From Candidatus Aenigmatarchaeota archaeon (lineage in GTDB: Archaea; Aenigmatarchaeota; Aenigmatarchaeia; QMZP01; QMZT01): a DNA stretch of 64,000 nt. The notes under the pieces were generated by a model, which saw only the letters and a program-made list of their open reading frames with translations, was not told the DNA's origin and ran no database searches. A program made the translations under genes and the position numbers. Numbering within the stretch: position 1 is the stretch's first letter; each line of letters opens with the position of its first letter. Positions 3,493-44,839 of the stretch are shown here, piece by piece. The stretch is from positions 45,450 to 109,449 of the forward strand of contig JAPLVC010000007.1 of NCBI GenBank assembly GCA_026397315.1. Direction: 5' to 3'.

Positions 3493-3655
3493 TGCAGCCA
3501 GCGCTGGGAACGTCCCGCGCATAGATTTGTTTTTCAACCACGTTTCAAACCTTTTAAAAGCGCCGAATTAATGATAAAATAGCCAGGCCAACTGGCGGAA
3601 ACAGGCAACGCATCATGGCAAAAAAGCGACGCGCATGACTTGGGAGGTGCTTAGC

Positions 3656-3982
3656 ATGGCAGAGGAAAACGCTGAGACAAGAAGCGAAGCGAAAGAGAGC
3701 AAATACAGGTTCAGAGAGAACGACAACGTGATATTCGTCGGGAGTAAGCCGACAATGTCATACGTGCTTGCAGTGATGACCCAGTTCTCCGGTGGGACGA
3801 ATGAAGTGCACATCAAGGCAAGGGGGCGTTCTATCTCGAGAGCGGTGGACGTCGTCGAAGTTGTGAAGAACAGGTTCGTCAACACGGCGAAGCACACGAT
3901 AGAGATAGGCACCGAGAAGATGCACGCGGAGAACAACATGGATATCAACGTGTCGACCATCGACATAAAGCTCGTGAAGTAA
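3656..3982 (+). CDS. albA: Chromatin protein Alba
   Basis: Strong similarity to Alba/Sso10b (NVIFVGSKPTMSYVLAVMTQF...HIKARGRSISRAVDVVEVVKNRF); GGAGGTG Shine-Dalgarno-like sequence precedes the internal ATG at 3656 in ORF 3635..3982. Confidence 0.8.
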   Translation: MAEENAETRSEAKESKYRFRENDNVIFVGSKPTMSYVLAVMTQFSGGTNEVHIKARGRSISRAVDVVEVVKNRFVNTAKHTIEIGTEKMHAENNMDINVSTIDIKLVK

Positions 3983-3993
3983 ACCAGCGACTG

Positions 3994-4010
3994 CTTTTTC
4001 TTTTATTTTA
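3994..4010. terminator. T-rich tract between convergent alba and tRNA genes (archaeal oligo-T terminator candidate for both)
   Basis: ctgctttttcttttatttt lies directly after the alba stop; its reverse complement is T-rich directly after the tRNA 3' end. Confidence 0.4.
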
Positions 4011-4052
4011 TCGCCTTGAGCGAAAGCTTTGTCGATGCGAAAATAAAGAAAG

Positions 4053-4289: not shown

Positions 4290-5414
4290 TCACTTTAAGA
4301 ACTTGTCTACCTGTTTCCTCGCGTGCTCCCTCTTCCTTGCGTGCTCGCGCAGAAACGCTTCCATCTTTTCCACGAGAATCTGCTTCAGTTCGCCTGAAAG
4401 CAGCTTGCCGGACTTGTAGTCGTCGTAAATCTGCTGCATCTTCTTGTCGTCGGGCTCGAATTGCGAGTAGAGATACTGGTAGGCGACGTCGATTTCCGGC
4501 ACGCCTCCTTTCTTGCGATGCTCCTCCAGCGTGTCTCGCCCTCCGGAGAAGGCGTATTTCATTATCTTGCTTTTTGCAGTGGCCGGGTCGTCCGTGAGGG
4601 CGATGTAGGAATACGGGTCCGAAGAGCTCATCTTCCCACCCTTGAGGCCCTTGATGAAAACATGATACGTCGACGATGGAAGCACGAAATTGTGCTCCTT
4701 CTCGAAGCGCGCCGCGATGTCCCTGCTTAGGCGTATGTGCGGGTCCTGGTCCGCGCCGACGGGCACGACGACGTGCCTGTAGCCGCCGAATTCAGGCAGC
4801 ATGGGATGGAGGATGTCCGCGACCTGCGTCATGACCGACATTACTTTTCCCGGCGTGATTTCGCCGTAAACGGCCTTCATCTCGTTGAACGTGACCTTCT
4901 TAGCGGCCATGCCGGACAGGCGGTAGAACGCGTTGGCTTTGTCCGGGTCTTTCGAGCGCGCGCTCTGGAAGTAGAAGTCGCAGTTCTTCGGGTCGAGCCC
5001 GAGAGCTATGTAATTGACCAGGTATTCGTTTATCGCGATTTCGCGCAGCTTATCCATGTCGTCTATGCGCATGTTGTATGCCTCGATGTCGGCGACGCAG
5101 ATGAACACCTTCGCTCCGAGCACTTTCTGATGGTAGATTATCTGCTCTGCCAGGATCTTGTGACCGAGATGGAACTTGCCCGAAGGCATAAGCCCCGTGA
5201 GCATGGCGTAACTCTCTTTTCTCGCGAGCGCGTCGAGAATCTTGTCGAAGTCGCGATGGCCGAACACGATGCCTCTTCTCATGAGTAAGTGAGGCTCCTT
5301 CATCCGCTTTAGTAACGGCTCGAACGGCTGGATGCCGAACTCGTCGCGCAGCTTGGCGTAATCCTTCACTTCCATTGATCCCCATGGATTTATTTCAGTT
5401 TTCATTTTCATCAC
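4290..5414 (-). CDS. trpS: Tryptophanyl-tRNA synthetase (archaeal/eukaryotic type)
   Basis: Class I motifs HLGH (GKFHLGHKILAEQ) and KMSSS; archaeal TrpRS-like length (374 aa). Confidence 0.85.
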   Translation of the reverse strand: MMKMKTEINPWGSMEVKDYAKLRDEFGIQPFEPLLKRMKEPHLLMRRGIVFGHRDFDKILDALARKESYAMLTGLMPSGKFHLGHKILAEQIIYHQKVLGAKVFICVADIEAYNMRIDDMDKLREIAINEYLVNYIALGLDPKNCDFYFQSARSKDPDKANAFYRLSGMAAKKVTFNEMKAVYGEITPGKVMSVMTQVADILHPMLPEFGGYRHVVVPVGADQDPHIRLSRDIAARFEKEHNFVLPSSTYHVFIKGLKGGKMSSSDPYSYIALTDDPATAKSKIMKYAFSGGRDTLEEHRKKGGVPEIDVAYQYLYSQFEPDDKKMQQIYDDYKSGKLLSGELKQILVEKMEAFLREHARKREHARKQVDKFLK

Positions 5415-5491
5415 TTGCCGTCATCACAGATAATCTATATTTTGATTCGTTTGTATATATTCTCTCACGGTCCGTTTCAATAACTGCCCGT

Positions 5492-5695
5492 TCAATCCAG
5501 GAATATGCCATAGCCGCCAAAGCTGGAGATGTCAATTCCTCTTCTGCCAAGTTCGCCTTCGATAACTTTCAACTCCGCAAGGTAATTTTCCAGTTTCCGT
5601 CCGGTCGGCCCTTCCACTATAAACCTTCCCTGGATATAACCGCGCCTTTCAAGCATCTGCAAAGTTTCGTTATTGCTGTTATTATCACCTAACAT
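5492..5695 (-). CDS. Hypothetical small protein (67 aa) between trpB2 and trpS
   Basis: Fills the co-directional 314-bp gap; no recognisable motif. Confidence 0.3.
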   Translation of the reverse strand: MLGDNNSNNETLQMLERRGYIQGRFIVEGPTGRKLENYLAELKVIEGELGRRGIDISSFGGYGIFLD

Positions 5696-11041: not shown

Positions 11042-12331
11042 CTAGCGCGTCACTTCTAGCTTGTTGACCGCTTCCAAAAGATCTTTGGCCTTCGCGTTCT
11101 TCTCGAAGTGCTGCCTGACCGGTTCTAGCAACTCGTTCAGGCGCAACGCCACTCCCGATTTCAGATCCATGGGGTGAATTTTGCCCTCGGCATATGCTTT
11201 CTCCAGTCCCGCGTAGCTTTCGAAAGACACGTCGCCTCCGAACTTCTCATGCCTTTTGATGTCAAAAGTCTTGAACTTCTCGAAGATTATGAACTTGCAG
11301 TATTCGAGGATCGGGTTTTCTGCAATCTGTTTCTCCGGGCAGTAAGCCTTGGAAATCTTGCGCTTCACTTCCTCCGGCGAATCGGTCATGAATATCGCGG
11401 AATCGGGCTTCGATTTGCTCATCTTCATGTCGATAGCACGTTCAGTCGCACTAATCACATGCTCAATTTTTATAGATCCGGGGAATAATTTATCATATAA
11501 TATTTTGATTTTTGAGCCATCTGGATAATTATACTCACTAATATTTTTTTTAATGAAGAATTTTTGTTTATCTACAACATCTTCCAAAAAGAACTCATCT
11601 GCTTCTCTATAATATTTAAACCTAGATGCTTTGTTGTAAATATCTAAATCTAGACTATATCTTAAACTAACTACAGGTTCTACTAATCCCATCATCATAT
11701 GGTGAGAGACGATGACCGGCTTCCAGTAGCCGAGCTTCGGGCCGATTTCGCGCGCGAGCACGTTGACCTTGCGCTGGTCCAGGCCGAGCTGGCATATGTC
11801 CGCCTTCAGATGAAAAATGTCCGCGGCCTGCATGCACGGGTAGAGAATCTGCGACGCCTGCTGCACGTCCGCGTCTTTCCGTCCCATTATCTGGCCGCAG
11901 CGGACGATTCTGTTGACAGTCGTGTTGCGCGCCACCTGCATGACCTTCTTCCAGTAGTCGTCGTCTTTCACGTGCCCTGAGGCCCAAACGAATTCTACGT
12001 TATCGGCGTCGAGGCCACACGACTTCCAGACCTCTATGAGGTATTTGCCTACCGTCTGTATGTTCTCGAGATTACCGCCCATCTTGTTGTTCGCCCAGCC
12101 GTGCCAGTCGGCAACCAGCATCTTGAACTTGCAGCCGGCGGAAGTCATTTTGTTTATGTTTATCGCCCGCAGTAGGCCCTGCGCTATGTGGACGTGCCCG
12201 CTCGGCTCGAAGCCATCATACGCTATCGGATGCTTTTTCTCCGCGAGCAGCGCCTTCAGCTCCTCAGGAGTGACTATCTCCCCGCCTTCGCCTACCTGCG
12301 AAACCAGCTCGAAGCGCTTTTCGACATCCAT
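11042..12331 (-). CDS. tyrS: Tyrosyl-tRNA synthetase (archaeal type) carrying an ~80-aa in-frame AT-rich insertion
   Basis: Close match to archaeal TyrRS (FEPSG...ADWH...QLGLDQRKVNVLARE...KMSKS...KFGGD...HPMDLK); 429 aa versus about 306-330 aa typical. Confidence 0.85.
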   Translation of the reverse strand: MDVEKRFELVSQVGEGGEIVTPEELKALLAEKKHPIAYDGFEPSGHVHIAQGLLRAININKMTSAGCKFKMLVADWHGWANNKMGGNLENIQTVGKYLIEVWKSCGLDADNVEFVWASGHVKDDDYWKKVMQVARNTTVNRIVRCGQIMGRKDADVQQASQILYPCMQAADIFHLKADICQLGLDQRKVNVLAREIGPKLGYWKPVIVSHHMMMGLVEPVVSLRYSLDLDIYNKASRFKYYREADEFFLEDVVDKQKFFIKKNISEYNYPDGSKIKILYDKLFPGSIKIEHVISATERAIDMKMSKSKPDSAIFMTDSPEEVKRKISKAYCPEKQIAENPILEYCKFIIFEKFKTFDIKRHEKFGGDVSFESYAGLEKAYAEGKIHPMDLKSGVALRLNELLEPVRQHFEKNAKAKDLLEAVNKLEVTR

Positions 12332-15764: not shown

Positions 15765-16241
15765 TTACGAAGGATTCGGCACAATAAGTTCTTCAGAGCC
15801 GAATTGTTCTTCCCCAACAAGGAAATCGTGTGGGAAGTCTCCGCGTGAAATTTTTTTCATCAAATATTCTATGGCGCAGGTTGCATGGGCTTCTGCGAAA
15901 GGCGGGGATTGCATGTCCGGATATTTAATGTTTTTTAAAATGTTTTCGGCAATTTCCCTTTCGTGTTTTTTCACGAAGGGAATCAGTTTTTCCGCATTTT
16001 TCTTGTTGAAACCCAAATCATTTCTTACAGAAAATCCTTGAATCACTTTGACCGTGTGCTCCAAGAGTTTTGATATATAAACAGCGTCTGCCTCATTTTT
16101 AATCAATGGCAGTTCATTGCCTAGAACGAAAAAACTGTAAAAATCAGCGCAAGTGGGCGGGCCTGCATATGCCTTGTTCGAACAAAATGCTATCTTATAT
16201 TTTTCGTTCCATCGGCACAGTTTGCAATAATCTGATAGCAT
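15765..16241 (-). CDS. Hypothetical protein (158 aa)
   Basis: Convergent with the beta-CASP gene; no motif recognised. Confidence 0.4.
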   Translation of the reverse strand: MLSDYCKLCRWNEKYKIAFCSNKAYAGPPTCADFYSFFVLGNELPLIKNEADAVYISKLLEHTVKVIQGFSVRNDLGFNKKNAEKLIPFVKKHEREIAENILKNIKYPDMQSPPFAEAHATCAIEYLMKKISRGDFPHDFLVGEEQFGSEELIVPNPS

Positions 16242-16341
16242 AATTCATCACTTAGTTTACTGTGAAATAGATACGAAATTAACTTTAAATTGACATGGTT
16301 TTGCATCGGGCTATTTAATTTCGAGCGGGCCAATATTAAAC

Positions 16342-17385
16342 ATGATTGTAATTCCTGGTGAGTATGGCAGCGGGTCGGGAACGATAGTCAGGCTCGCAAC
16401 CGCATTTTCTGCGCTAACCGGAAAGCCGATAAAAATAACCGACATACGCGCGAAGCGTCCGAACCCGGGCCTGCGCCACCAGCATATCGAAGCGCTGAGG
16501 GCGATAGCGAAACTGAGCGGCGGAAAATTGAAAGGCGATGAAGTCGGCTCAAAGGAAATAGAGTTCACGCCAAAGAAAGTGAAGGGCGGAACTATTGACG
16601 TGGCGATAGAGACTGCCGGCTCCATAGGCCTGCTTGCTTATGCTGTCATGATTCCAGCTCTTTGCGCTTCCGGGAAAACGATTCTCAGGATAAAGGGCGG
16701 GTCCACCGCTAGTTTATGGGCGCCGCCGGTCTACTACATGGAAAACGTGCTGTTTCCGACGCTCGCGAAGATGGGAATCGACGCGAAATTCACCATAAAC
16801 ATGCATGGTTTTTTCCCCAAAGGCGGAGCAGACGTCGTGTTCGAGATAAGCCCCGCGAAGAAAGTCGCTCCCATAGTCATGAAGGAAGCCGGAGACGTCG
16901 AAACGATAACAGGCTTATCTATCGCATCGAATGACCTGAAATCCAGGAACGTAGCCGAACGGCAAATCGCCGGCTACCGCAGGATAATAAGGAAGGAGAA
17001 AGGCGTCGACATAAAACCGTTATACGTTAACGCCGCTTCGACCGGCTCGGCTTTCGTTGTCTGGGCCAAAACGACGACCGGATGCATTCTGTCGGGAGAC
17101 CACGTGGGCGAAGAGAAGAAGCCTGCCGAAGTCGCCGGAGAAGAAGCGGCATTCAAGCTGAAAGAAGAGATGGATTACAAATCGACCGTGGGCTTCCAGC
17201 TCGCGGACCAGCTCATTCCCTTCATGGCGCTCGCGTCCGGCAAATCAGAAATTCTCGTGCCGGAGCTTACGGATCACGTGAAGACGAACATATGGCTTTG
17301 CGAAAAGTTCCTCGGCTCGAAATTCGTCACCAAAGAGAACGGCGAGAATTTCAGGGTTTCCTGTTCCGGCCGCGCGTCAAAATAA
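16342..17385 (+). CDS. rtcA: RNA 3'-terminal phosphate cyclase
   Basis: N-terminus GEYGSGSGTIVRLATAFSALTGKPIKITDIRAKRPNPGLRHQHIEALRA matches the RtcA family. Confidence 0.8.
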   Translation: MIVIPGEYGSGSGTIVRLATAFSALTGKPIKITDIRAKRPNPGLRHQHIEALRAIAKLSGGKLKGDEVGSKEIEFTPKKVKGGTIDVAIETAGSIGLLAYAVMIPALCASGKTILRIKGGSTASLWAPPVYYMENVLFPTLAKMGIDAKFTINMHGFFPKGGADVVFEISPAKKVAPIVMKEAGDVETITGLSIASNDLKSRNVAERQIAGYRRIIRKEKGVDIKPLYVNAASTGSAFVVWAKTTTGCILSGDHVGEEKKPAEVAGEEAAFKLKEEMDYKSTVGFQLADQLIPFMALASGKSEILVPELTDHVKTNIWLCEKFLGSKFVTKENGENFRVSCSGRASK

Positions 17386-18881: not shown

Positions 18882-19595
18882 TCATTCCTCGTCTTTGATG
18901 ACTTTTATTGCGAGCGTGCCGAGGTCTATGGAAATTATTTTCGCGTTCCCCGGGTTGACGCACAGCGTGCGCCCTATCTTCTGCTTCATGCTTTTCGAAA
19001 CTCCCGGCGACTCGTGGATGTGGCCGTGCAGCGTCAGCATCGGCTGCGCGTCCTCGATGAACCTGCGTATAGCTTCGCTGCCTTTATGCTCGCCGTTGTG
19101 GAGCATGTCCAGCTTCGTCCCCAGCGGCGGCGCGTGGAAGACGAATATCATCTTTTCCATATCGAGCCTGGATGACATCGCCTTCAGCTCCGTGTATATT
19201 TCCTCTTCGGTTTTCTCCCAGTCTTTCAGCAGGAACGGCGTGGGATTTATGTAAGGATATCCTGCGATGGTCCATTCTTTATGTCTGTAAGACTTCCTGT
19301 GAAGCAGCATCGCCGTCCTGAGCTTGCCTGCCTTTTTCAATATTTTGAAATTCGCCTCGAAATCGTCGTTGCCCATCATGATGAAGACGGGCTTCTTGGC
19401 CTGCTTCTTGAATTCTTTCAGGCGCGGGGTCAGGTAGAACTGGAGGAAAAATGCCTGGCCGCTCGGGTTCACGCCGGAAGTGATGTCGCCGCCGAATACG
19501 ATGGCGTCTATATCGCTAGCTCTCGCAAGCTCGAACACGCGCTCGTATACCTTGACGATACCATGGACGTCCGTCACGTAGAGAATTTTCGTCAT
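18882..19595 (-). CDS. Calcineurin-like metallophosphoesterase
   Basis: MPP motifs DVHG, GGDITS, GNDDFE, HAPP, GHIHE. Confidence 0.7.
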   Translation of the reverse strand: MTKILYVTDVHGIVKVYERVFELARASDIDAIVFGGDITSGVNPSGQAFFLQFYLTPRLKEFKKQAKKPVFIMMGNDDFEANFKILKKAGKLRTAMLLHRKSYRHKEWTIAGYPYINPTPFLLKDWEKTEEEIYTELKAMSSRLDMEKMIFVFHAPPLGTKLDMLHNGEHKGSEAIRRFIEDAQPMLTLHGHIHESPGVSKSMKQKIGRTLCVNPGNAKIISIDLGTLAIKVIKDEE

Positions 19596-19617
19596 AGAAT
19601 CACAACTGAGATATTAG

Positions 19618-19728
19618 TGGACTCGTCGGGATTTGAACCCGAGGCCTCTTGGATGCGAACCAAGCGCTCTCTAGCGACTGAAGCAGGCGAACCTGCTTCC
19701 ATCGAAATTACCACTGAGCTACGAGCCC
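19618..19728 (-). tRNA. tRNA-Ala (anticodon CGC) with a 39-nt intron at a non-canonical position in the D-loop
   Basis: Minus-strand read: GGGCTCG-TA-GCTC-AGTGGTA-[intron ATTTCGATGGAAGCAGGTTCGCCTGCTTCAGTCGCTAGA]-GAGC-G-CTTGG-TTCGCAT-CCAAG-AGGCC-TCGGG-TTCAAAT-CCCGA-CGAGTCC-A. The G3:U70 Ala identity pair is present and there is no encoded CCA. The intron forms an 8-bp hairpin with a TTCG tetraloop. Confidence 0.75.
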
Positions 19729-19754
19729 GTGTCAAACATTATCTTATTATTCAG

Positions 19755-19763
19755 TATATATAA
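19755..19763 (-). promoter_or_regulatory. TATA box (TTATATATA on the minus strand) about 27-35 nt upstream of the tRNA-Ala 5' end
   Basis: A/T-rich box at canonical archaeal spacing; lies in the divergent intergenic region shared with the LigD_N-like gene. Confidence 0.5.
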
Positions 19764-19771
19764 CTTAAATT

Positions 19772-20137
19772 ATGCCCGTTTTCGTAGTCCACGAGCATAA
19801 CGCTTCGCGCCTCCACTGGGACCTCCGCCTGGAGATGGACGGCGTGCTGAAATCGTGGGCCGTTCCGAAGGAGCCGCCGTTGGAAGCGAATGTCAAACGC
19901 CTCGCGATACAGGTGGATGACCACGCTCTTTCTTATGGGAAATTCGAAGGTGTCATTAAAGAAGGGTATGGTGCCGGCACCGTGAAAATCTGGGATAATG
20001 GAACGTATGAAATCGTGGACAAGAAACCTGATAAAATCGTTTTCAAGATTAGCGGCAGGAAGATGCGCGGGGAATACGTCCTGCTGAAATTCAAAAAAGC
20101 CGACGAAAAGGAATGGCTGCTTTTCAGGAAAGAATGA
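19772..20137 (+). CDS. LigD N-terminal domain (3'-phosphoesterase-like) stand-alone protein
   Basis: ASRLHWDLRLEMDGVLKSWAVPKEP...DHALSYGKFEG...GYGAGTVKIWDNGTY matches the LigD_N domain consensus. Confidence 0.6.
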   Translation: MPVFVVHEHNASRLHWDLRLEMDGVLKSWAVPKEPPLEANVKRLAIQVDDHALSYGKFEGVIKEGYGAGTVKIWDNGTYEIVDKKPDKIVFKISGRKMRGEYVLLKFKKADEKEWLLFRKE

Positions 20138-20183
20138 CAAAGTTGGTAAATACTTTTTCTAAAAATATCTGTTTTTAAAAAAA

Positions 20184-20648
20184 TTGATTGACTACATGTT
20201 TAAACATAGGTTATTATTACTACAATTCCAGAAATCATTAATGACCAAGATAATTTATCTCGACACCAACATCTATCTAGATTATTATTTTGATAGACAT
20301 GGATCTAAAAGAGCATTTGATATAATATTTTTTCGAGCACCAAATTGTGAATTCAAAATAGTTGTTTCAGATTGGGTTCTGCGAGAACTTGAACTTAATG
20401 GAATTGGTTCAAAAGAAATGAAAACACTTTTCAGTAGAATTTCTGAAAATAAAAAATTGGTTACAATTTTTACAGAAAAACCAAAGGACATAGACGATGC
20501 GAAAAAAATATCATCGGATCATTTTCAAGATCCATTACATGTGATTCTCGCTAAGAAGGGTGGCGCTGAAATATTAATAACAAGAAATGTACAAGATTTC
20601 AACTGTTGTAGGCATCTTTTAGATATCAAGTTTCCTGAAGATATTTGA
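20184..20648 (+). CDS. PIN-domain-like putative nuclease
   Basis: N-terminal IIYLDTNI and C-terminal AEILITRNVQDF resemble PIN signatures; AT-rich. Confidence 0.45.
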   Translation: MIDYMFKHRLLLLQFQKSLMTKIIYLDTNIYLDYYFDRHGSKRAFDIIFFRAPNCEFKIVVSDWVLRELELNGIGSKEMKTLFSRISENKKLVTIFTEKPKDIDDAKKISSDHFQDPLHVILAKKGGAEILITRNVQDFNCCRHLLDIKFPEDI

Positions 20649-21791
20649 TGTATCTTCCTTCGCAAATTCTTCAGCTATTTTTCTTCTTTCATCTTTCGTA
20701 GTCTTCTTCTCTTCAATTATTTTCATCAAAGTCCTGTATTTTTCAAATTCTTTAAACTCAGTTTCTTTCAATTCATCAACTTTGCACAGATCTCTCAAAT
20801 AAGAAACGTATTCAATCGCTAACCTTTCATTTATTATGAAATAAATATCAAGATATGATTTGAGCGTGTTTTTGTCATAACCAATTTTTAAAAGACTTTC
20901 AAAAAGATTATATGTGGTTATCATATCCCACACAATTCGCATAGTGTCTAGTATTTCTGTCCTCAATTCGTTTATTTCATCAGATTTCATAGTTTTTAGC
21001 ATGTAAATTGTAGTTGAAATAAAATCATTCAATATCTTTGCAGCATTTTCAGTTTCCTCATTTAATTTAAAATTAAATCCAATCTCCATTAGAATATCTC
21101 TTATTTTCAATTTGTTTTCATCATTTAATTCAATAATACCAAAATTTTTCTCAAATTCAAACTGTCTGAGATAGAGTAAATTTTTAGATTTTATATATTG
21201 TCCCTTTCTCATATACACCGAATTGTGATCTTTTTCTTTCTCAACTATTCTATTTATGCATTCGTTTATCTCACTCTCATTTTTAACGGACGTGTAACTA
21301 TAATCCTTTGTTGGGTCATATAATTTTAAGCAAAGTTCACCGAACCTGTACCAAACTAATGGTACATCTAGATTACATTCCTGTACTATATCTACAAGTA
21401 ATTTTTGAACTTGTGTTTTGTTAGGATAATAAGTCGTCTTCTCTTTCCAAGTTTCTCTAATTTTCATAAAAAGGAAATTTACTAAATTATCTTGTTCCGA
21501 CTTAATCGGTATTCCGAAAAGCGTTCCTGAATTTTTTTCGGGAGAACTTGTGCAAGATTTCAAAGTGAAAACTCTTTTGTTTCCTTCTGCTCTCTCAACA
21601 GCGATTCCGGATTCTTCTAGCATCTCCAAATATTTGCGCACACTATCCCATGTCGTTCCGGTTTCGCCGGCAACTTCATAAATAGATTTGGGGCCTTTTT
21701 TCAGGGATTCGATGACAGATTGAACAACTTCGCGGCTGGTCTTCTTGGCACTACCCCTGCCAGTTGTCATGTTAATAATATTGGTAACCAT
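20619..21791 (-). CDS. Hypothetical 390-aa protein with N-terminal winged HTH and long helical C-terminal region
   Basis: wHTH segment KSIYEVAGETGTTWDSVRKYLEMLEESGIAVERAEGNKRVFTL; the remainder is K/E/I/N-rich with no known motif; convergent with the PIN-like gene, overlapping it by 30 nt. Confidence 0.45.
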   Translation of the reverse strand: MVTNIINMTTGRGSAKKTSREVVQSVIESLKKGPKSIYEVAGETGTTWDSVRKYLEMLEESGIAVERAEGNKRVFTLKSCTSSPEKNSGTLFGIPIKSEQDNLVNFLFMKIRETWKEKTTYYPNKTQVQKLLVDIVQECNLDVPLVWYRFGELCLKLYDPTKDYSYTSVKNESEINECINRIVEKEKDHNSVYMRKGQYIKSKNLLYLRQFEFEKNFGIIELNDENKLKIRDILMEIGFNFKLNEETENAAKILNDFISTTIYMLKTMKSDEINELRTEILDTMRIVWDMITTYNLFESLLKIGYDKNTLKSYLDIYFIINERLAIEYVSYLRDLCKVDELKETEFKEFEKYRTLMKIIEEKKTTKDERRKIAEEFAKEDTSNIFRKLDI

Positions 21792-21907
21792 ATTTAAATA
21801 TCACCATATCAGCATAGACTAATTTTAAATAAGTAGAATGAATAAAAGCTTTATATACTTAATTGCAAATACTATATAGTTATTTGAGTATAGTAATGGA
21901 GGTAAAA

Positions 21908-22180
21908 ATGAGAAGAATCGTTAAAAGAGTAGTGGATGGCGATACTTTGGAAGTTAATCGTAATATAAATGGGACTAGATTTGTAAGACTCGCCAATGTA
22001 AACGCACCCGAAAGGCATCAATTTGGTGGAAGAACAGCGACAAAAACATTAACCGGCCTTGTAGGCGGTAGATCGATAACACTAACTCCTGTAGCAAGGG
22101 ACGTTTATGGAAGAGTAGTCGCCGAAGTCAGATGTGGAAGACAAAGTATCAATCGTAAAATGAAGAAAAGAGGATATTAA
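21908..22180 (+). CDS. Short thermonuclease (SNase)-like protein
   Basis: VVDGDTLEV...VRLANVNAPE resembles the SNase catalytic core (DGDT...R...D.PE); GGAGGT RBS precedes the internal ATG of ORF 21863..22180. Confidence 0.5.
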   Translation: MRRIVKRVVDGDTLEVNRNINGTRFVRLANVNAPERHQFGGRTATKTLTGLVGGRSITLTPVARDVYGRVVAEVRCGRQSINRKMKKRGY

Positions 22181-22202
22181 AAATATATCAAGGGAGGAAA
22201 TC

Positions 22203-22355
22203 ATGATAAAAATAATCGCTATAGCAACAGGACTCGCAGCTGTACTTGGACTTGGTAGCATTCTTCTTTCAAGTCTAGGCAATAATACTTGGCCTGTATT
22301 TTTGTTTGCAGCAATATTTGTTTTTTTAATCGGTATACTCGTTAAAAAAATATAA
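22203..22355 (+). CDS. 50-aa membrane peptide (MIKIIAIATGLAAVLGLGSILLSSLGNNTWPVFLFAAIFVFLIGILVKKI)
   Basis: Manual translation; GGGAGGA RBS 6 nt upstream; two hydrophobic helices; below the ORF-track cutoff. Confidence 0.35.
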   Translation: MIKIIAIATGLAAVLGLGSILLSSLGNNTWPVFLFAAIFVFLIGILVKKI

Positions 22356-22440
22356 TAAGATAAAAAACACCCATTGAAAAACATTTTGTTAGATTTGATA
22401 ATTAAATCGTATTTTAACCAGAACGACAAAATATTTTCTT

Positions 22441-22977
22441 ATGATTGACATTTACACGCTCGTCGAGGCCGTGTGGATTCTGTGGCCGGCGTACGGGGCG
22501 AACGGCCTGTGCATGCTCGCGCATGGGAAGCGGGTCATCGATGGCGGACGCATGTGGCGCGGCAAACAGATTTTTGGCCCGGGCAAGACATGGGAAGGTC
22601 TGCTGTTCGGCGTGTTCGTTGGCGCGCTCGTCGGGACGATTCAGATGCTCGCTTACCCGTTCCTGCCATGGGAGCTTTCCCCGGTCGCGCTTTCGCTGGT
22701 CCCCATGACGCCGCTCACGGGCGCGCTCATAGGCCTGGGCGCGCTGCTCGGCGACATAGGCGGCTCGTTCATAAAGCGACGCCTGGGCATCGCGCGAGGC
22801 AAACCAGCGCCAATCCTGGACCAGCTCGATTTCATAGCGGGAATGCTGATTGTGCTGGCGTTCGTGTATCCGCTGAAATGGGAATGGGTCGTGATATTGG
22901 CGATAATGACGCCGGTCTTCCACCTGCTGGCGAACAGGATAGCCTACATACTGAAGCTCAAGAACGTGCCTTATTAG
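22441..22977 (+). CDS. carS: CDP-archaeol synthase
   Basis: DUF46/CarS-like signature ANGLCMLAHGKRVIDGG...GPGKTWEGLLFG in a 178-aa membrane protein. Confidence 0.7.
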   Translation: MIDIYTLVEAVWILWPAYGANGLCMLAHGKRVIDGGRMWRGKQIFGPGKTWEGLLFGVFVGALVGTIQMLAYPFLPWELSPVALSLVPMTPLTGALIGLGALLGDIGGSFIKRRLGIARGKPAPILDQLDFIAGMLIVLAFVYPLKWEWVVILAIMTPVFHLLANRIAYILKLKNVPY

Positions 22978-22998
22978 AAAGATAAAAAATTACTCAAT

Positions 22999-23217
22999 TT
23001 ACTTCTTTTTTGCGAGCCTGATTAATTTTTTGACCTTGGAAGCCTTGCTCTTGTTGCTGGGGCCCCTGCCTTTGTTCTTCACGTGCTTTAATTTTTTATG
23101 CGTCTTGTGCACCTTTTTCTTCAGCGGTTTCCTGGAAACTTTTTTTCTTTTGACCATCTGCATCCCTGATAAACAAATAGCTGACAACTGGACTCGGTGA
23201 AAGAGTTCCTCAAACAA
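22999..23217 (-). CDS. Lysine-rich highly basic small protein
   Basis: MVKRKKVSRKPLKKKVHKTHKKLKHVKNKGRGPSNKSKASKVKKLIRLAKKK; looks like a nucleic-acid-binding or ribosomal-like protein; family unknown. Confidence 0.3.
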   Translation of the reverse strand: MFEELFHRVQLSAICLSGMQMVKRKKVSRKPLKKKVHKTHKKLKHVKNKGRGPSNKSKASKVKKLIRLAKKK

Positions 23218-23651
23218 CCATCGATTGCATTCTTAACCTACCGACGTGCTTTAGAGGTGATCTCATTCGCGCCATACAGAAGCTTAACAAGCGCAGGTTT
23301 CGTGCGGTGAGTTATAGTCCAGACACCACATTAATGGCTGAGCGCCTGACAGAGGCCTATATGGACACATCCTTTTCAGGACAACCGAAATGTCCTGTCA
23401 GCAGAGATAATTATATGATGTGATATATATATTTATCTGACTACTTATTGGTCAATAAAACACAACGCATTTAAAGTAAAAAACGATATGCATCGACCAA
23501 TAAATTCCGGCTAATAGCGATTTTTTATTTTTCCAAAATATATAATCCAAAAGTTAAATTCGTTATAAACACATAATAGCGCTTCCTGTTTAAATATTTA
23601 TGCGTTATTCAATTTGTTTTTTAACCACGATTGTAAAATATTATTGTCTTT

Positions 23652-24248
23652 ATGCAGGGGAAGTTCATCGTCTTTGAGGGAATCGATAAGTCGGGCAAGC
23701 ACACGCAATCGCGCATGCTCTTCGAATACCTGCGCAGACGCGGAGAGCGGGTGATGTATACTGAAGAGCCGACTGCGGACAACCCCGCCGGGCGCGCTAT
23801 AAAGGATTGGTTGGCAGGAAAGTTCGAGCTGAAGAGCGGCGAGGCGATAACGCTTTTGTATACTGCTGACAGATACGAACATCTTAAACAAACGATACTG
23901 CCGTCGCTGGAAAAAGGCATGACGGTGATTTCGGACCGATACTTCTATTCGACAATCGCCTACGAGTCGGCGATATTCAACGTCGACCCGAAATGGATAC
24001 GCGAGCTGCACGAGAAGGCACGCAGGCCGGACGTCGTGATATTCATCGACATCGCGCCGGAGATATCGCTCAAGCGGCGACGCGCCCGCCCGGACGACAG
24101 GCTGGAGAAGGTCGAACTTCTTACTAAGGTCAGGGAAGCATACAAGAAGATGATGGATGAAGAGCGTTTCTTCACCGTCGACGGGAACCGGACGAAAGAG
24201 GACGTCTTTGCCGACGTGAAAAAAATCATCGACAGAATTTTGGCCTGA
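23652..24248 (+). CDS. tmk: Thymidylate kinase
   Basis: P-loop FEGIDKSGKHTQ, DRY motif; 198 aa. Confidence 0.8.
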   Translation: MQGKFIVFEGIDKSGKHTQSRMLFEYLRRRGERVMYTEEPTADNPAGRAIKDWLAGKFELKSGEAITLLYTADRYEHLKQTILPSLEKGMTVISDRYFYSTIAYESAIFNVDPKWIRELHEKARRPDVVIFIDIAPEISLKRRRARPDDRLEKVELLTKVREAYKKMMDEERFFTVDGNRTKEDVFADVKKIIDRILA

Positions 24249-32870: not shown

Positions 32871-34175
<1,305 letters not shown>

Positions 34176-34288
34176 AAAGTAGTTTTTGTTCTTTTCATTT
34201 CATTAAATCACGATACTATCGCAATATTATCCGGTGTATCCCGAATAAAATCTGAGTGTATTAAATAGGATGCTGACAATATTTAATC

Positions 34289-34594
34289 ATGAAAATGTTC
34301 GTTTCGATATTTTTTGCTATTTTTGTCATTTTGGTGGTGTCATCATCAGGATGCATTAATTCTGCGTATGAAGGTACATTACTGTATCAGAAAGCGGACG
34401 CCAACAAATGTGAAGCGTATTACATAGTAATCAAAGAAAAGCCATATGAGATAAACACAACTTTGGTTGGTGATTTGGATGATTATGTCAACAAGAGTGT
34501 TAGGATCAGGGGTGAATTGATTACTCGCACAGCGCTGAAAAAATGCTTATTTGAAACCACGATTAACGCAGCTGATATTCAGCTTATTGATTAA
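34289..34594 (+). CDS. Hypothetical small secreted/lipoprotein-like protein
   Basis: Signal-peptide-like N-terminus ending SSSGC; AT-rich. Confidence 0.35.
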   Translation: MKMFVSIFFAIFVILVVSSSGCINSAYEGTLLYQKADANKCEAYYIVIKEKPYEINTTLVGDLDDYVNKSVRIRGELITRTALKKCLFETTINAADIQLID

Positions 34595-34669
34595 ACAGAT
34601 TCTGGTTCATACTTATATTTCATCGGATATCAGGACTTCCTGCAAGGCAATGTTAAGTTCTGTTAAAAA

Positions 34670-36595
34670 TCATTTACTTTCTTTATGCTTGTTTATTGCT
34701 ATGCGCAACTCGCTCATTACGACCGTGGTGTCTATCTTGCCGCGGACCTGCTGCATGACCAGGCCGAGAAGAATCTTTTCCCCGCGCTCGTCGCCGATCA
34801 GCTCGCTGTTTTTGTCAAGCGTCTTGATGATAATGAGTTTCAGATCTTCGATAGTCAGTTCGATTATCTTCGTCTTGCGGATCGCCTGCTCTGCCGATAA
34901 TTCCGGCTCTTTCGCAATCGCTTTCAGCACGTCTGGAATCGCTTCCTTCGCCAGTTTGCCATCCTTCAACTTATTTAATATTTCCGAGAAATGGTGCTCT
35001 TCGAGCTTCTCGACAGCGACACCGCTTCTTTTTAGATACGGTAGTGTAGAAATCAAAATTGTAGAAACTATTTTTGGGTCATAACCATCATCTATAAGTT
35101 TCTCGAAAAGTTTATGCTTACCAGATTTTATAATTTGTTTTAATATCTCGTCGCTTATCTTTAGTTTTTTGACTGATGCACCATCTTTAATCTGTAGTTT
35201 TTCTGTTAGATTCAACGTTATCCTTTTGCCTTTATCCTCTAAAAGTTCCGGTAGATTTTTTCTTATCGCGGCCAGCCTGGCGTGCGTTATCCTTATGGGC
35301 GGCACGTCGGTTTCCGGGTAAAGTCTCGCCGCTCCGGGCAGCGGGCGCATGTATTCCGTCTCGCCTGTGTCGAGCGCTTTCCTCACTTCCGTCGGAACGC
35401 CGACAACGAGCTGGTTTATGCGCTCTGCGACAATAGCCATTGTCTTCTCGACTGCTTTTTCCTCACCAACCGCTATTATCAGAGTGTCTCCATGGCCGGC
35501 TTTCATTTCATGCCTCAGCTTCTCGAAATCCTTCGTTAGTTTATACTTCTCCAGCTCTTCGTCGCTGTGGATTATGCCTTTCATTTCCGATTTCGCCCTC
35601 ACGTAATTGGCTACTTCATTGCCCAGCGTGCGTGTAGGCGTAATCTGCCTTTTCAAATAACCAGCGAAATCAGGGACGAGTATCGCGTACGTGGTCTTGT
35701 CTTTCGTTATCTTGGACTCTGAATCCTTGAAAATATGGGATACATGAACGACTTTCGGCTTGACTGGTTTGAAGCCTGCCTTATGCAGATCCTTCTTTAT
35801 CTCAATCAGACTCGCCTGCCTGAGCGCCTCGTTCTCAACGAATTTAGGAATCATGCGCAGCTCCTGCGCGCCCTTTATCTCCACTCGCGCGCCGCCCTCT
35901 ATCGATACGTTTACGTCTTGGCGGATCGTGCCGAGGCCGCGCTTCACCTTTTCAGTCGAGCGGACTATCATGCCCAGCATCTCAGCGACCTCGCGCGCTT
36001 GTTCCGGCGTGCGTATGTCGGGCGACGTCCCAATCTCGACGAGCGGGATGCCAAGCCTGTCGAGGCCGTAGAACACGCGATTTCCATCGCGCCCCATTAT
36101 CTGGCAGCTTTCCTCCTCAAGGCAGATGTTCTCGATGCCCACTTCACCGAAGCTCGTCTTCATCTTGCCGCGGAGTCCGGCGACCGACGTCCGCTGGAAG
36201 CCGGAAGTGTTCGAACCGTCGAGGACCGTTTTTCTCATCACGTGTATTTCCTCAGGCACTTCGCATTTCAGCATCTCGGCCACGGTAAGGACGATATCTA
36301 ACGCTTCCGAATTCATGTTGCCCGGAGGCTCCTCGTCCAGCTCGATAAGGCAGGACTCTTCGGGATAAACCCGGTAGACGAATTCGACCCCTTTCGCGAC
36401 CTCTCCCAGCGCGGCGATGTCTATCTCGCCCGTTTCACCGGCGACGACGCGCAGCTTGCGCGCTACCTCCAGCGACGGCTTCGCTTCGGAGAAGCGCGAC
36501 CTGCACATGCAGAACAGCTTGTGTTGAGTCTCGAGCTGTTGGTGAATCTCGATGCCGCATTTCAGCCCGAGCTTTGAATAATCGAGTTCACTCAT
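34670..36595 (-). CDS. gatE: Glutamyl-tRNA(Gln) amidotransferase subunit E
   Basis: Archaeal GatE N-terminus (GLKCGIEIHQQL), 641 aa; overlaps gatD by 8 nt. Confidence 0.85.
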   Translation of the reverse strand: MSELDYSKLGLKCGIEIHQQLETQHKLFCMCRSRFSEAKPSLEVARKLRVVAGETGEIDIAALGEVAKGVEFVYRVYPEESCLIELDEEPPGNMNSEALDIVLTVAEMLKCEVPEEIHVMRKTVLDGSNTSGFQRTSVAGLRGKMKTSFGEVGIENICLEEESCQIMGRDGNRVFYGLDRLGIPLVEIGTSPDIRTPEQAREVAEMLGMIVRSTEKVKRGLGTIRQDVNVSIEGGARVEIKGAQELRMIPKFVENEALRQASLIEIKKDLHKAGFKPVKPKVVHVSHIFKDSESKITKDKTTYAILVPDFAGYLKRQITPTRTLGNEVANYVRAKSEMKGIIHSDEELEKYKLTKDFEKLRHEMKAGHGDTLIIAVGEEKAVEKTMAIVAERINQLVVGVPTEVRKALDTGETEYMRPLPGAARLYPETDVPPIRITHARLAAIRKNLPELLEDKGKRITLNLTEKLQIKDGASVKKLKISDEILKQIIKSGKHKLFEKLIDDGYDPKIVSTILISTLPYLKRSGVAVEKLEEHHFSEILNKLKDGKLAKEAIPDVLKAIAKEPELSAEQAIRKTKIIELTIEDLKLIIIKTLDKNSELIGDERGEKILLGLVMQQVRGKIDTTVVMSELRIAINKHKESK

Positions 36596-37964
36596 TCAAT
36601 CCCTCTGCAGAAAAAGCATCCGCCTGCGTGCGCGGTGTGATTTCACCCGCGTAGCTGGTAAGCATCATTTCCCTGATTTTCTCCATGCTCTTTGTTTTTC
36701 CCAGAACCCACATAAGCTTGACGTACGCCGTCTCGCTGGTCATGTCTTCACCGGGAATGGCTTTCGCTTCTGTGAACAATTTGCGCAGGTTCGTGTAAAC
36801 ATAAGGATTGACGCGACCGAATATCGTCTGGGACGTGATGACAAAAGGGATAGTCTCGGCATGCTTTCCTATGGCGAGCGTCCACGGCTTCTTAGCCACG
36901 TCCGTCGGCACGTGGCCCATGCCCGTCCCTTCGATCACGAAGCCCTTGACGCCGTTCTTGACGTGGAAATCGATTACTTTCGGGTCCGCGCCTGGATAGA
37001 CTTTCAGCAGCGCTACCTCGGGTTCGATCTTCGCATCCACTTCCACGTGTTTTTTGTCATCCCTCTTCCTGTAATTTTTGTTTAGTATCTCAACCCTGCC
37101 GCTGTGATAAATTTTAGCCAGCGCCGGCTCGTTTATGGGTCGGAAAGCGTCTCGCCTGGTCGTGTGCATCTTGCGCACCTTCGTGCCGCGGATGAAATGG
37201 CAGTAGTCGTCGCTCGTGCTGCCGTGCATGCAAGTCCCGACCTCGGCGATGTCCGACACGGCAACGTGGGCTGCGCAAATGAGATTCATGCCCGCGTCGC
37301 TGGAACCGCGGTCGCTTGACCTCTGCGCCCCGACGAGCACGACTGGTTTGTGCAGGTTCTGCAGGAAGAATGAAAGCGCGGCCGCAGTGTAGTGAAGCGT
37401 GTCGGTGCCGTGCGTGATTATCACGCCTTTTTTGCCCGCGTTCAGCTCTTTCGCCACTTCTCTCGCCAGGTGCTGCCAGTCCTCCGGGTCGAGGTCTTCG
37501 CTCATCTTCTTCATGGGCGAGAACATTTCGAGATTGACAATATGGGAAAGCTCCGGAATGTTGTGCAGCAGCTCCTTCGGGTTCTCGACGGCGTATACGC
37601 CGCCAGTCCTGTAGTCGACGCGCGAGGCAATCGTCCCTCCCGTCGAAATGAGAGCGACGTGCGGCTTGTTTGCATCGAAAGCGATCTCAAGCAGCTCTTT
37701 GCTAGTCCTGCCAAATTCGTACTTCGCTTCATCAGCGACGTCTTTTGGCTCCCTGATATGAGACCTGGATATATTTGCATCCGTTATGTCGATGCCTATG
37801 TTGTAGCCGCTGTCCAGTTTTACCAGAACCGTTTTCTCGTCGCCGTGAGACGTTTTCGGCATGAGCAGGCCCTCGTAGCTCTTGCTTCCCTTTTCCACGA
37901 GAATCCTGTCGCCGACGCTTATTTTGCCGTGGTCCAGAATTTTCTGTATTTCATGGGAATACAT
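36588..37964 (-). CDS. gatD: Glutamyl-tRNA(Gln) amidotransferase subunit D (asparaginase-like)
   Basis: Asparaginase-fold motifs (ISTGGTIAS, ITHGTDT); operon with gatE. Confidence 0.85.
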   Translation of the reverse strand: MYSHEIQKILDHGKISVGDRILVEKGSKSYEGLLMPKTSHGDEKTVLVKLDSGYNIGIDITDANISRSHIREPKDVADEAKYEFGRTSKELLEIAFDANKPHVALISTGGTIASRVDYRTGGVYAVENPKELLHNIPELSHIVNLEMFSPMKKMSEDLDPEDWQHLAREVAKELNAGKKGVIITHGTDTLHYTAAALSFFLQNLHKPVVLVGAQRSSDRGSSDAGMNLICAAHVAVSDIAEVGTCMHGSTSDDYCHFIRGTKVRKMHTTRRDAFRPINEPALAKIYHSGRVEILNKNYRKRDDKKHVEVDAKIEPEVALLKVYPGADPKVIDFHVKNGVKGFVIEGTGMGHVPTDVAKKPWTLAIGKHAETIPFVITSQTIFGRVNPYVYTNLRKLFTEAKAIPGEDMTSETAYVKLMWVLGKTKSMEKIREMMLTSYAGEITPRTQADAFSAEGLNE

Positions 37965-38010
37965 AATTAGATATTGCGCGCGCCGGATTAAAATATTATT
38001 TTATTTAAAA

Positions 38011-38886
38011 TCACAGAGGACGCGCCGCTTTTAGATCTCTATAATGGTTTACATAGCCTTCTCTGCCGCCTAAAGTGGAACGTTCTGCCGCTTGAATTGC
38101 CTCCCTGTATTTTCCCATATCAGATAGACAAAGTGAAAGACGATAAAACGCTGGCATGTTCAAATCATCCAATTCCGTTGCTTTTTTGAAAAACCTGGCG
38201 GCCGTTTTATAATTTTTTTTATTGTCCCAATAAACGCCTACTTTAAAATAGATGTTTGCCAGAAGCTGGTCGTTGCTCAGCGGCAAGTCAAAAATTCCAT
38301 TCGAAAGTTCTTTTTGCGTATATTCATTTACGTCTTTAGTTGGCGCACCAAAAAATCCGCCGTTTGATTGAAAATTAAATTGATTTCCGTCTTTGTCAAT
38401 ATATCTCACGTAAAAATGTGATTCACTTTTACCTCTACATCTGACACCATACAACCACATGCCTTCAATGTCGGCAAGATCGAGATAAAGATACGAAGAT
38501 GTATCGCAATCGAGAGCGTTTTTTTTAAACCCTTCGGAAAGCATAAGGATATCCGCATCATCCGGGTTGAAAACGAAATTGAATGGTTTATCTTTCAGTA
38601 TGTTGTATATGACGGGTAGGTTTTCTGGCCCTATATCCGGCTTGTATTTCTCATGAAAAACTTTTCTGAGCCTGTGCAGCTTTTCAACCGCTCCATGATA
38701 GTCAAAGTCATAATCTGTGCATGTTCGCTCAATGTAAAGCGTTTTCTCGCCAAAACCGTTTAAATTATTCAAGAAGGAGTCATTCATGACCGATGCCCTA
38801 TCGCCGCGTGTGCTGAGCATGTCAAATCCCAAAGCAGCTCCGCCCGCCAGCTTCAATGCGGTCCCTATGAAATTTCTCCTTTTCAT
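38011..38886 (-). CDS. TAT-signal secreted protein with C-terminal TPR-like region, paralog A
   Basis: Twin-arginine motif MKRRNFIGTALKLAGGAALG at the internal Met; shares the SEGF..LDCDTSS.LYLD.ADIE core and TPR-like tail with the adjacent paralog. Confidence 0.5.
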   Translation of the reverse strand: MKRRNFIGTALKLAGGAALGFDMLSTRGDRASVMNDSFLNNLNGFGEKTLYIERTCTDYDFDYHGAVEKLHRLRKVFHEKYKPDIGPENLPVIYNILKDKPFNFVFNPDDADILMLSEGFKKNALDCDTSSYLYLDLADIEGMWLYGVRCRGKSESHFYVRYIDKDGNQFNFQSNGGFFGAPTKDVNEYTQKELSNGIFDLPLSNDQLLANIYFKVGVYWDNKKNYKTAARFFKKATELDDLNMPAFYRLSLCLSDMGKYREAIQAAERSTLGGREGYVNHYRDLKAARPL

Positions 38887-44491: not shown

Positions 44492-44839
44492 ATGCCTGTA
44501 AAATTAGTTACGGATGACAATACCAACGGAGTCGTACCGATTCTTATAGAATTGTATAAAGGCGCTGGTAAAAACCCTCAATATATTTACACTGGCGTGG
44601 ACGGAATCGTCCCTAAAAATTACGATGAAGGGCAAATAATGGACTGGAAGACGGGAGAAACGCTCGCGACAATAGGCCTTCCCGGAAATTTACCGCCCGA
44701 GCTCAAAAGGAATTATCTGCCATCCAATTCAAGAATTGTAGAAATTAACCCGGAAATCGACAAGGAAGGCGACGTTTTTCAGGGATTGGTAAAAAGGCTG
44801 TTGGGCAGGAATGTATTCGTGGATGCCGCGATGTGCTAA
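44492..44839 (+). CDS. Hypothetical small protein (115 aa)
   Basis: GGAGGTG RBS 6 nt upstream of the internal ATG; no TM or signal peptide; AT-richer block. Confidence 0.35.
   Translation: MPVKLVTDDNTNGVVPILIELYKGAGKNPQYIYTGVDGIVPKNYDEGQIMDWKTGETLATIGLPGNLPPELKRNYLPSNSRIVEINPEIDKEGDVFQGLVKRLLGRNVFVDAAMC

Follow-up and report, generated by a model that had tools for sequence, protein, structure and literature searches.

The genome of a Candidatus Aenigmatarchaeota archaeon carries an AT-rich islet of 2.27 kb between its LigD_N and carS genes, located in a 64-kb stretch of contig JAPLVC010000007.1 (hereafter the window, i.e. the whole 64,000 nucleotides analysed). The islet encodes a PIN-domain protein, a large winged helix-turn-helix (wHTH) protein on the opposite strand, a short staphylococcal nuclease-like (SNase) protein and a 50-aa hydrophobic peptide, pep50. 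We suggest that the islet is probably a recent horizontal acquisition, an accessory segment lodged in a LigD_N-carS spacer of about 50 bp, and that its core is a VapBC-like toxin-antitoxin (TA) module in which the PIN gene and the gene of its wHTH partner lie tail to tail.

A preliminary description of the locus listed these four open reading frames (ORFs) as one combination and noted that the PIN and wHTH genes overlap by 30 nt at their 3' ends. All four ORFs are present as described, and so is the overlap, but two of the starts are probably different. The PIN gene most likely starts at the ATG at 20241 (135 aa), as in all homologues. The 390-aa partner ORF probably starts at M8 (21770), which gives a protein of 383 aa and agrees with the 383-aa gene call at NCBI. 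The assignments as PIN-like, N-terminal wHTH and SNase-like are upheld by Pfam, and pep50 has no family. Comparison with relatives does not keep the four genes together as one unit; it splits them into a PIN/partner pair and an accessory SNase-pep50 operon.

Tail-to-tail organization of the PIN clade

Loci were collected from the contexts of PIN homologues found by sequence search and from a metagenome scan with the PIN alignment; they are referred to below by L numbers. Three loci ending at a contig edge and one with only a partial PIN match were left out. The remaining 27 distinct loci, each with sequence past the PIN stop codon, were assessed. An opposite-strand ORF abuts the 3' end of the PIN gene in all 27. 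The two genes overlap by 4-48 nt in 25 loci and are separated by 8 and 26 nt in the other two. The clade-wide convergent overlap implies that the two genes have separate promoters and overlapping transcripts.

The partner protein comes in three forms, a long wHTH form of 361-401 aa (8 loci), a short form of 74-104 aa (17 loci) and a tail-only form of 48-50 aa (2 loci). The N-terminus of the short form, for example 'KLIHLRLPEKLYKE...QEFIKESLR', gives weak matches to RHH_1, RHH_8 and CopG_antitoxin. An N-terminal DNA-binding domain is found in 25 of the 27 partners, a wHTH in 8 and a ribbon-helix-helix (RHH)-like domain in 17.

All three forms share a C-terminal tail, which is predicted to be disordered, as judged by low confidence in the AlphaFold2 (AF2) model. 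When the long family is compared with the short partners, hhalign aligns just the last 33 columns (probability 93.3%, E 2.6e-7, 45% identity). The shared consensus reads K.lt.eER.k...ef.....sd.F[RK].[fy]Gl, and residues 360-390 of the window partner align to the C-termini of the RHH partners. The conservation of the tail is not due to dual coding, because it extends far past the overlapped codons and is kept where the overlap is 4 nt. The tail is missing from two distant wHTH family members, whose matches to the profile end near position 340, and these also lack a convergent PIN gene. From these alignments we regard the tail as a putative PIN-neutralising segment.

The genes of the tail-less relatives (L058 3001-4707 and L060 1506-3300) are followed by a co-directional gene for a 214- or 237-aa protein. 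The two downstream proteins share 28% identity (E 9e-17); one of them, annotated DUF8169, has a weak PIN_12 match (E 0.0025). Since the tail-less relatives precede a weakly PIN_12-like gene, the partner body also pairs with a nuclease-like gene in canonical TA order. Such pairs may represent a second family of TA or defence modules that uses the same body but has the canonical gene order. The island around the L058 pair holds type I restriction enzyme, RadC, Bro-N and nucleotidyltransferase genes.

Two convergent PIN/partner pairs stand in tandem in L029 (5001-6494). The first has a tail-only partner of 48 aa (5385-5531), and the next has an RHH-type partner with an 8-nt PIN overlap. L057 contains a CRISPR-like array (2813-4038, the same as L056 4154-5503) with exact 31-33-nt repeats about 66 nt apart, which begins about 330 nt beyond a wHTH/PIN module.

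The PIN protein and its partner

The PIN protein matches Pfam PIN_3 (E 2.6e-5) and its AF2 model has a predicted local distance difference test (pLDDT) score of 92.7. The top Foldseek matches are VapC toxins (template modelling score, TM, 0.58-0.69, probability 1.0), with VapC proteins of Shigella, M. tuberculosis, Rickettsia and Pyrococcus among the matches, as well as PcrIIC1. Utp24/Nob1-type PIN proteins are also matched, at lower rank. D8, S43, D97 and H100 are invariant in the 27 PIN homologues, and E49 and T114 are nearly invariant. By its PIN_3 match, its residue conservation and its AF2 and Foldseek results, the window protein has the features of a PIN-domain toxin with conserved acidic active-site residues. 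No co-directional antitoxin candidate was found upstream of the PIN gene in the window, where 103 nt lie between the LigD_N stop codon and the PIN start codon.

The partner belongs to a conserved family, for which a profile search without word index gave 333 cluster representatives at E<=1e-3, mostly full length at 320-390 aa, and a word-indexed search gave 7 clusters. The window protein has a match of 100% identity at NCBI, encoded on a 166-kb contig of a metagenome-assembled genome (MAG) of Candidatus Aenigmarchaeota. Its AF2 model (pLDDT 81.7 overall) consists of an ArsR-like wHTH domain (residues 18-78), a helix/beta-hairpin unit (98-154), a helical bundle (172-335) and the C-terminal tail. 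The body scores above 90, and residues 341-390 score 47-67. When a 67-member family profile was searched against PDB sequences and Pfam, the wHTH alone was recognised, and among solved structures nothing resembling the body was found beyond generic bundles. The motif KTQxQK...GWYxYG suggested a Panacea/DUF4065 (SocA-type) antitoxin domain; a test for a match to DUF4065 in sequence or structure was negative.

Promoter-like palindromes

At 34 nt upstream of the PIN ATG stands the palindrome ATGTTTAAACAT, whose core is TTTAAA and which is a putative TATA-type promoter or operator of the PIN gene. GTTTAAACAT is kept upstream of the PIN genes in L017, L020 and L023. The palindrome ATATTTAAATAT is found about 20-25 nt upstream of the M8 ATG and is kept in L055, L020 and L017. 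It is a putative TATA box or operator of the wHTH gene, and its position would fit a TATA box driving a leaderless wHTH mRNA. The two palindromes are similar, both being centred on TTTAAA, and may be operators bound by a dimer of the wHTH protein. Upstream of the SNase-pep50 genes, a CTTTATATAC box and the inverted repeat TACTATA...TATAGTA are kept in L055 and L020.

Composition and insertion site of the islet

The drop in G+C across the four ORFs, noted by eye in the preliminary description, is borne out by the sliding G+C and by G+C at third codon positions (GC3), and a uniform composition is ruled out. The G+C of the islet is 0.31, against 0.50 for the window. Intervals of 300 nt have a G+C of 0.25-0.35 from about 20000 to about 22450 and of 0.50-0.57 on both flanks. 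In intervals of 500 nt over the whole 64 kb the mean is 0.504 (sd 0.059), and the minimum of 0.258, about 4 sd below the mean, is the islet, which is both the longest (2.6 kb below 0.40) and the deepest low-G+C segment of the window. GC3 is 0.21 for the PIN gene, 0.30 for wHTH, 0.26 for SNase and 0.18 for pep50, compared with 0.63-0.78 in nine neighbour genes (LigD_N, carS, Tmk, NADK, DEAD and others) and near 0.7 in the host genome. LigD_N and carS do have host composition, as was claimed. Other short segments of low G+C (0.37-0.40) are found at 11201-11700, 15801-16400, 34101-34700, 37901-38800, 44701-45400 and 50601-51100; these six may be AT-rich intergenic regions or more small insertions.

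A tblastn synteny map showed a conserved backbone of genes for a membrane protein, an acetyltransferase, a metallophosphatase, tRNA-Ala, LigD_N, carS, Tmk, NAD kinase and a DEAD helicase. The relatives of carS are Aenigmatarchaeota MAGs. In the closest relative, L003 (carS 92% and DEAD 96% identical), LigD_N and carS are separated by just 51 bp, and the islet is therefore an insertion. This spacer measures 54 bp in L004 and 8 bp in L008, so that three relatives lack the islet between LigD_N and carS. Junction alignments place the left edge of the insertion at the base after the LigD_N stop codon (20138) and the right edge at about 22403. The carS upstream sequence resumes at about 22405, and the last ~36 nt before the carS ATG are a conserved carS upstream region outside the insertion. 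The islet is compositionally foreign, accessory and inserted relative to these relatives.

The islet was at first thought to adjoin the tRNA-Ala gene and was a candidate for the remnant of an element integrated there. The LigD_N gene, of host composition, intervenes. The reported absence of an integrase is correct, as no integrase domain was found in Pfam, PADLOC and NCBIfam scans. A blastn-short search of the tRNA region against the window and a repeat search found no tRNA-derived direct repeat, just 12-13-nt matches at chance level; the best att-like match is a 12-nt one, inverted and outside the tRNA. The flanks of the islet have no target duplication and no inverted repeat. A candidate target-site duplication, 'TGATTGAC...TACA', at the PIN ORF start and the carS start, was rejected as chance; the conserved carS upstream sequence is on the wrong side for an att core. 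The tRNA link fails because there are no integrase and no repeats, because LigD_N intervenes, and because the tRNA-LigD_N adjacency is kept in relatives without the islet. An Rfam scan of 19400-23800 matched the tRNA alone.

The same genes are found elsewhere in different surroundings. L017, L018 and L019 have the same convergent PIN/wHTH pair (wHTH 55% identical, 33-nt overlap) between LigD_N and carS, together with other extra genes. In L020 and L021 the pair (wHTH 51%, PIN 64% identical) lies between an IleRS-type tRNA synthetase gene and a His_Phos_1 gene. L055 has 80% DNA identity to 21667-22347 of the window, covering the wHTH 5' end, SNase (83%) and pep50 (90%), and continues downstream of pep50 with an unrelated Zn-ribbon gene. 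The modules of the window and L017 have a DNA similarity of 67-71%. The module in L020 and L021 has a G+C of 0.34-0.41 against flanks of about 0.5; that in L017 differs little from its flanks and is nearly host-like. That the same genes are found in three or more genomic contexts is consistent with a mobile accessory module, but this is not decisive, since the L017 copy shares the junction of the window. No wHTH homologues were found in collections of viral contigs, phages and plasmids.

Mini-SNase and pep50

The SNase gene was previously described as truncated. Its product matches Pfam SNase (PF00565) above the gathering score (E 2.4e-8, 34.8 bits against a cut-off of 21). The match covers 2-73 of the 107 profile positions, and the chain stops after the oligonucleotide-binding (OB) barrel. 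It also matches the phrog_452 endonuclease (E 4.4e-15). All 31 homologues are equally short, 79-104 aa, and end at the same point, which makes this a conserved mini-SNase family and not a pseudogene. The family keeps DGDT (D10/D12), R27, P34-E35 and Y67-G-R69, motifs that correspond to D19/D21, R35, P42/E43 and Y85/R87 of staphylococcal nuclease and that include the catalytic Arg/Glu/Arg (R27, E35 and R69). Most members have Asn in place of the Ca2+ ligand D40. Unlike full PF00565 proteins, the mini-SNase has neither the C-terminal helices with Y113/Y115 nor a signal peptide.

Scans of Pfam, PADLOC, NCBIfam and PHROG gave no family match for pep50. Its homologues follow the SNase gene in L055 and lie divergently upstream of the wHTH gene in L020 and L021 (67% identity). 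A mini-SNase 69% identical to that of the window is encoded in L052 (4818-5634); in its small operon it is flanked by a 57-aa ORF and by the gene of a YdjM-family membrane hydrolase. N6/N4 methyltransferase, restriction-enzyme helicase and TraC/TraG-like ATPase genes are found on either side of this operon.

Proposed mechanism and alternative explanations

We propose that the PIN protein would act as a Mg2+-dependent RNase toxin, and that the partner (383/390 aa) would neutralise it, with the C-terminal tail of the partner covering the PIN active site. The neutralising tail would comprise about 30-50 residues and be disordered when alone. The wHTH of the partner would bind the TTTAAA-centred palindromic promoter elements of the module and in this way control transcription. 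Each gene would have its own promoter, and the converging, overlapping transcripts may couple the two genes further, through antisense effects or transcriptional interference. Between wHTH and tail, the large helical body may serve as a sensor or oligomerisation domain, and the SNase-pep50 operon would be accessory cargo that travels with the closest relatives of the module. RNase toxicity, tail neutralisation, operator binding, the regulatory role of the overlap and an addiction or defence function are what we infer from the sequences.

We further speculate that the PIN clade is a class of tail-to-tail protein TA modules with separate promoters and an obligatory 3' overlap, where antisense or interference effects supplement neutralisation. 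The antitoxin would be modular, consisting of the tail with nothing else, with an RHH domain, or with a wHTH and a sensor-like body of 250 residues, and the large form would be a ligand- or virus-responsive switch. This wider proposal is tentative, and we think it possible but rather doubtful.

Several observations weigh against the TA module. Every PIN-anchored locus came from a search with the single motif YLDTN[IV]YL, and the survey covers one clade. The PIN_3 match is below the Pfam gathering score, the PIN profile is weak against PDB sequences (E 0.01), and the fourth acidic position is variable across the clade, the window protein having N116 with D119. A simple antitoxin role does not account for the 250-residue body. 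The genes are convergent with a 3' overlap, and do not form an antitoxin-first bicistronic operon under one autoregulated promoter as in VapBC. PADLOC-DB 2.0 gave nothing significant for the islet proteins, with no match for PIN or pep50; its weak matches are to Csa3 at the level of the wHTH (E ~1e-3) and a partial one to SNc (E 3.7e-4). An NCBIfam scan of the islet proteins was likewise without significant matches. The pair at the same LigD_N-carS junction in L017 could conceivably reflect an old insertion with repeated loss.

The islet was initially considered a candidate defence system, TA module or mobile-element remnant. A TA module is the best-supported of these for the PIN/wHTH pair; PADLOC recognises no named defence system, and the remnant is not sustained. 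An abortive-infection or antiviral system, where the body of the wHTH protein would sense a viral component and release or activate the PIN RNase and the mini-SNase and peptide would be extra effectors, is in our judgement unlikely for the islet. It overlaps with the TA module and does not exclude it, and it is a plausible extension for the large partner, whose 250-residue domain is superfluous for simple neutralisation. The distribution is patchy and the G+C low. Relatives lie near type I/II restriction-modification (RM), Cas4 and PD-(D/E)xK genes and an integrase, others are in the island with type I RM, RadC and Bro-N or beside the CRISPR-like array of L057, and a mini-SNase homologue is within an RM/TraC-TraG region. 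However, PADLOC gives no match, the genes flanking the islet in the window are housekeeping genes, and most relatives have a minimal RHH or tail-only partner without any sensor domain.

If the pair were ancestral at the LigD_N-carS junction and lost in most relatives, with a low G+C caused by gene-specific constraints, its position and orientation in L017, L018 and L019 and the 67-71% DNA similarity to L017 would be accounted for. Such a history requires losses in L003, L004, L005, L006, L007, L008 and L009, and a GC3 of 0.2-0.3 is hard to keep by vertical descent in a genome with a GC3 of ~0.7, the more so as the L017 copy has a nearly host-like G+C. The module is also present at unrelated sites, and its proteins are 51-55% identical where the flanking proteins are 73-76% identical. 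We find this history improbable. A decayed plasmid or virus integrated at tRNA-Ala, with the wHTH protein as a replication or regulatory protein and the nucleases as leftover cargo, is more improbable still. The low G+C, the nuclease-rich content, a tRNA gene ~400 bp away and the match of SNase to a phage endonuclease family (phrog_452) would suit it, but neither an integrase or Rep motif nor a tRNA-derived direct repeat was found, the host-composition LigD_N separates the tRNA from the islet, which is on the 5' side of the tRNA, and the tRNA-LigD_N adjacency does not depend on the islet. Viral contigs, phages and plasmids have no wHTH homologue, and none of the sampled contexts shows the four genes on a circular element or beside an integrase with att repeats. 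The idea that the PIN protein is a housekeeping RNA-processing nuclease, the wHTH protein a neighbouring transcription factor and the overlap a result of genome compaction in DPANN archaea has very little to recommend it and is the one to which we give least credence. DPANN genomes are compact and gene overlaps are common in them, some PIN proteins are processing enzymes, and Foldseek does match Utp24/Nob1-type PINs. Yet the pair is absent from the closest relatives, the partner co-varies with PIN across very different contexts, its tail is kept where the N-terminal domain is swapped, and the conservation of the tail exceeds the overlapped codons and persists at a 4-nt overlap.

Neighbouring loci

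The coordinates of the islet features and of neighbouring features are given in Table 1. ARAGORN and Rfam detect just the 3' part of the tRNA-Ala(CGC) gene (19619-19693 and 19625-19678, respectively). Its 5' acceptor and D-stem half, GGGCTCGTAGCTCAGTGG, is found at about 19718-19735, and the full 117-nt sequence folds as a cloverleaf in which the D-loop contains the insert (-48.8 kcal/mol, z -2.9). We take the insert as a probable non-canonical archaeal tRNA intron. At the same place, the tRNA-Ala(CGC) of L005 and L008 is uninterrupted and 72-74 nt long, and ARAGORN made no call at this position in L003 and L004.

Table 1. Features of the islet and its surroundings (positions in the window)
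Feature	Position	Strand	Basis or remark
tRNA-Ala(CGC) with ~40-nt D-loop insertion (stable hairpin)	19619-19735	-	folding
LigD_N gene	19772-20137		between tRNA-Ala and islet; host composition
AT-rich inserted segment (islet), 2.27 kb	20138..22403	.	G+C drop, junction alignments
Palindrome ATGTTTAAACAT, TTTAAA core, putative TATA-type promoter or operator of PIN gene	20196..20207	+	
PIN-domain (VapC-fold) protein, 135 aa, putative RNase toxin	20241..20648	+	Pfam, AF2, Foldseek
3' overlap of PIN and partner genes, opposite strands, 30 nt	20619..20648	.	ORF coordinates
wHTH partner, 390-aa ORF, putative antitoxin and regulator	20619..21791	-	conserved full-length family, AF2
C-terminal tail of partner, residues 341-390, putative PIN-neutralising segment	20622..20771	-	AF2, hhalign
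Central body of partner, residues 90-340, second small helix/beta-hairpin unit and helical bundle	20772..21524	-	
wHTH domain of partner, residues 18-78	21558..21740	-	Pfam, PDB profile, AF2
Palindrome ATATTTAAATAT, putative TATA box or operator of wHTH gene	21790..21801	-	
CTTTATATAC box and inverted repeat upstream of SNase-pep50 genes	21849..21895	+	
Mini-SNase, 90 aa (94 aa with alternative start 21896)	21908..22180	+	Pfam SNase
pep50, 50-aa two-helix hydrophobic peptide	22203..22355	+	22 nt downstream of SNase gene
Lys/Arg-rich, very basic 54-aa ORF, GC3 0.65, no family	22999-23163	-	inside second insertion

A second, smaller insertion of 657 bp (22978-23634, G+C 0.37) is found between carS and Tmk, where the spacer is 31-40 bp in L003, L005, L007 and L008. 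Apart from the 54-aa ORF listed in the table, about 430 nt of it have no ORF and no Rfam match, and the stretch 23205-23410 shows no significant folding (z -0.3 and -1.6).

The spacers between LigD_N and carS, carS and Tmk, and Tmk and NADK hold different cargo in different MAGs, as seen in the relatives L003-L013 and L017. The Tmk-NADK spacer contains a CorA gene in L003. The cargo of L009 includes an AAA_14/DUF4143 ATPase gene. In L004 the carS-Tmk spacer holds a 4.8-kb low-G+C block with an 855-aa helicase/methyltransferase-like ORF, and L011 has two membrane or unknown ORFs with a G+C of 0.32. L017 has ABC-transporter genes between carS and Tmk and a cupredoxin gene between LigD_N and carS. 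These three backbone spacers behave as insertion hot spots.

A conserved 307-311-aa protein is encoded directly after LigD_N in L005 (9072-10004), L007 (1379-2302), L009 (507-1442) and L017 (9614-10543). It belongs to no Pfam family, and neither the window nor L003, L004 and L008 encode it. The protein may work together with the stand-alone LigD_N phosphoesterase. An assignment of the 309-aa gene as LigD polymerase/primase was withdrawn, as there is no Pfam support for it.

Comparison with known systems and implications

The module resembles VapBC in its small VapC-fold PIN protein with conserved acidic residues and in a partner with an N-terminal DNA-binding domain and a conserved, probably disordered C-terminal tail that would bind PIN. 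VapB antitoxins are of the RHH, AbrB, PHD or HTH type, and the short partners are RHH proteins of ~90 aa resembling classical VapB. The patchy, compositionally foreign distribution is another likeness. In contrast to VapBC, each gene must have its own promoter, and the window partner is about four times the size of VapB, with an extra 250-residue body of an unrecognised fold family. We do not file the module as canonical VapBC, because the genes are convergent, and not in a co-directional operon, in 27 of 27 loci.

Convergent transcripts overlapping at their 3' ends are known from type I TA systems, e.g. txpA/RatA and bsrG/SR4 of B. subtilis, and here too the two RNAs could pair. Those systems consist of a non-coding RNA antitoxin and a small membrane peptide toxin, whereas here there are two conserved proteins and the overlap is coding on both strands. 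The gene pairs of RM systems also occur tail to tail. They are likewise two-gene modules of the addiction type with separately promoted convergent genes, but their proteins and mechanism are unrelated. The literature searched describes neither protein TA pairs in a convergent or tail-to-tail arrangement nor DUF7342, but its coverage is incomplete, so that a prior description is possible. Recent surveys of dark matter and of defence in archaea do not mention the PIN/partner pair. Nothing about the islet as such is out of the ordinary. What is unusual is that the tail-to-tail layout is conserved and that the putative antitoxin is modular and very large.

The analysis leads to three corrections of annotation: the nuclease is not truncated, the link to the tRNA is spurious, and two gene starts are revised. 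To our knowledge, prediction tools and surveys for type II TA systems assume co-directional gene pairs, and because of this assumption a PIN clade with convergent partners would escape them. If the wider proposal is true, TA finders built for co-directional operons would miss such modules, which could make up a sizeable hidden fraction of the accessory genome in DPANN archaea.

DPANN archaea have been reported to have few recognisable defence systems (PMC12988326). If the tools miss convergent pairs, the TA and defence repertoire of these archaea would be under-counted. The three partner forms (tail only, RHH with tail, and wHTH with body and tail) make up a natural series on what extra domains add to an antitoxin, and the obligatory 3' overlap offers an opportunity to test whether control by protein and by antisense RNA is combined in archaea.

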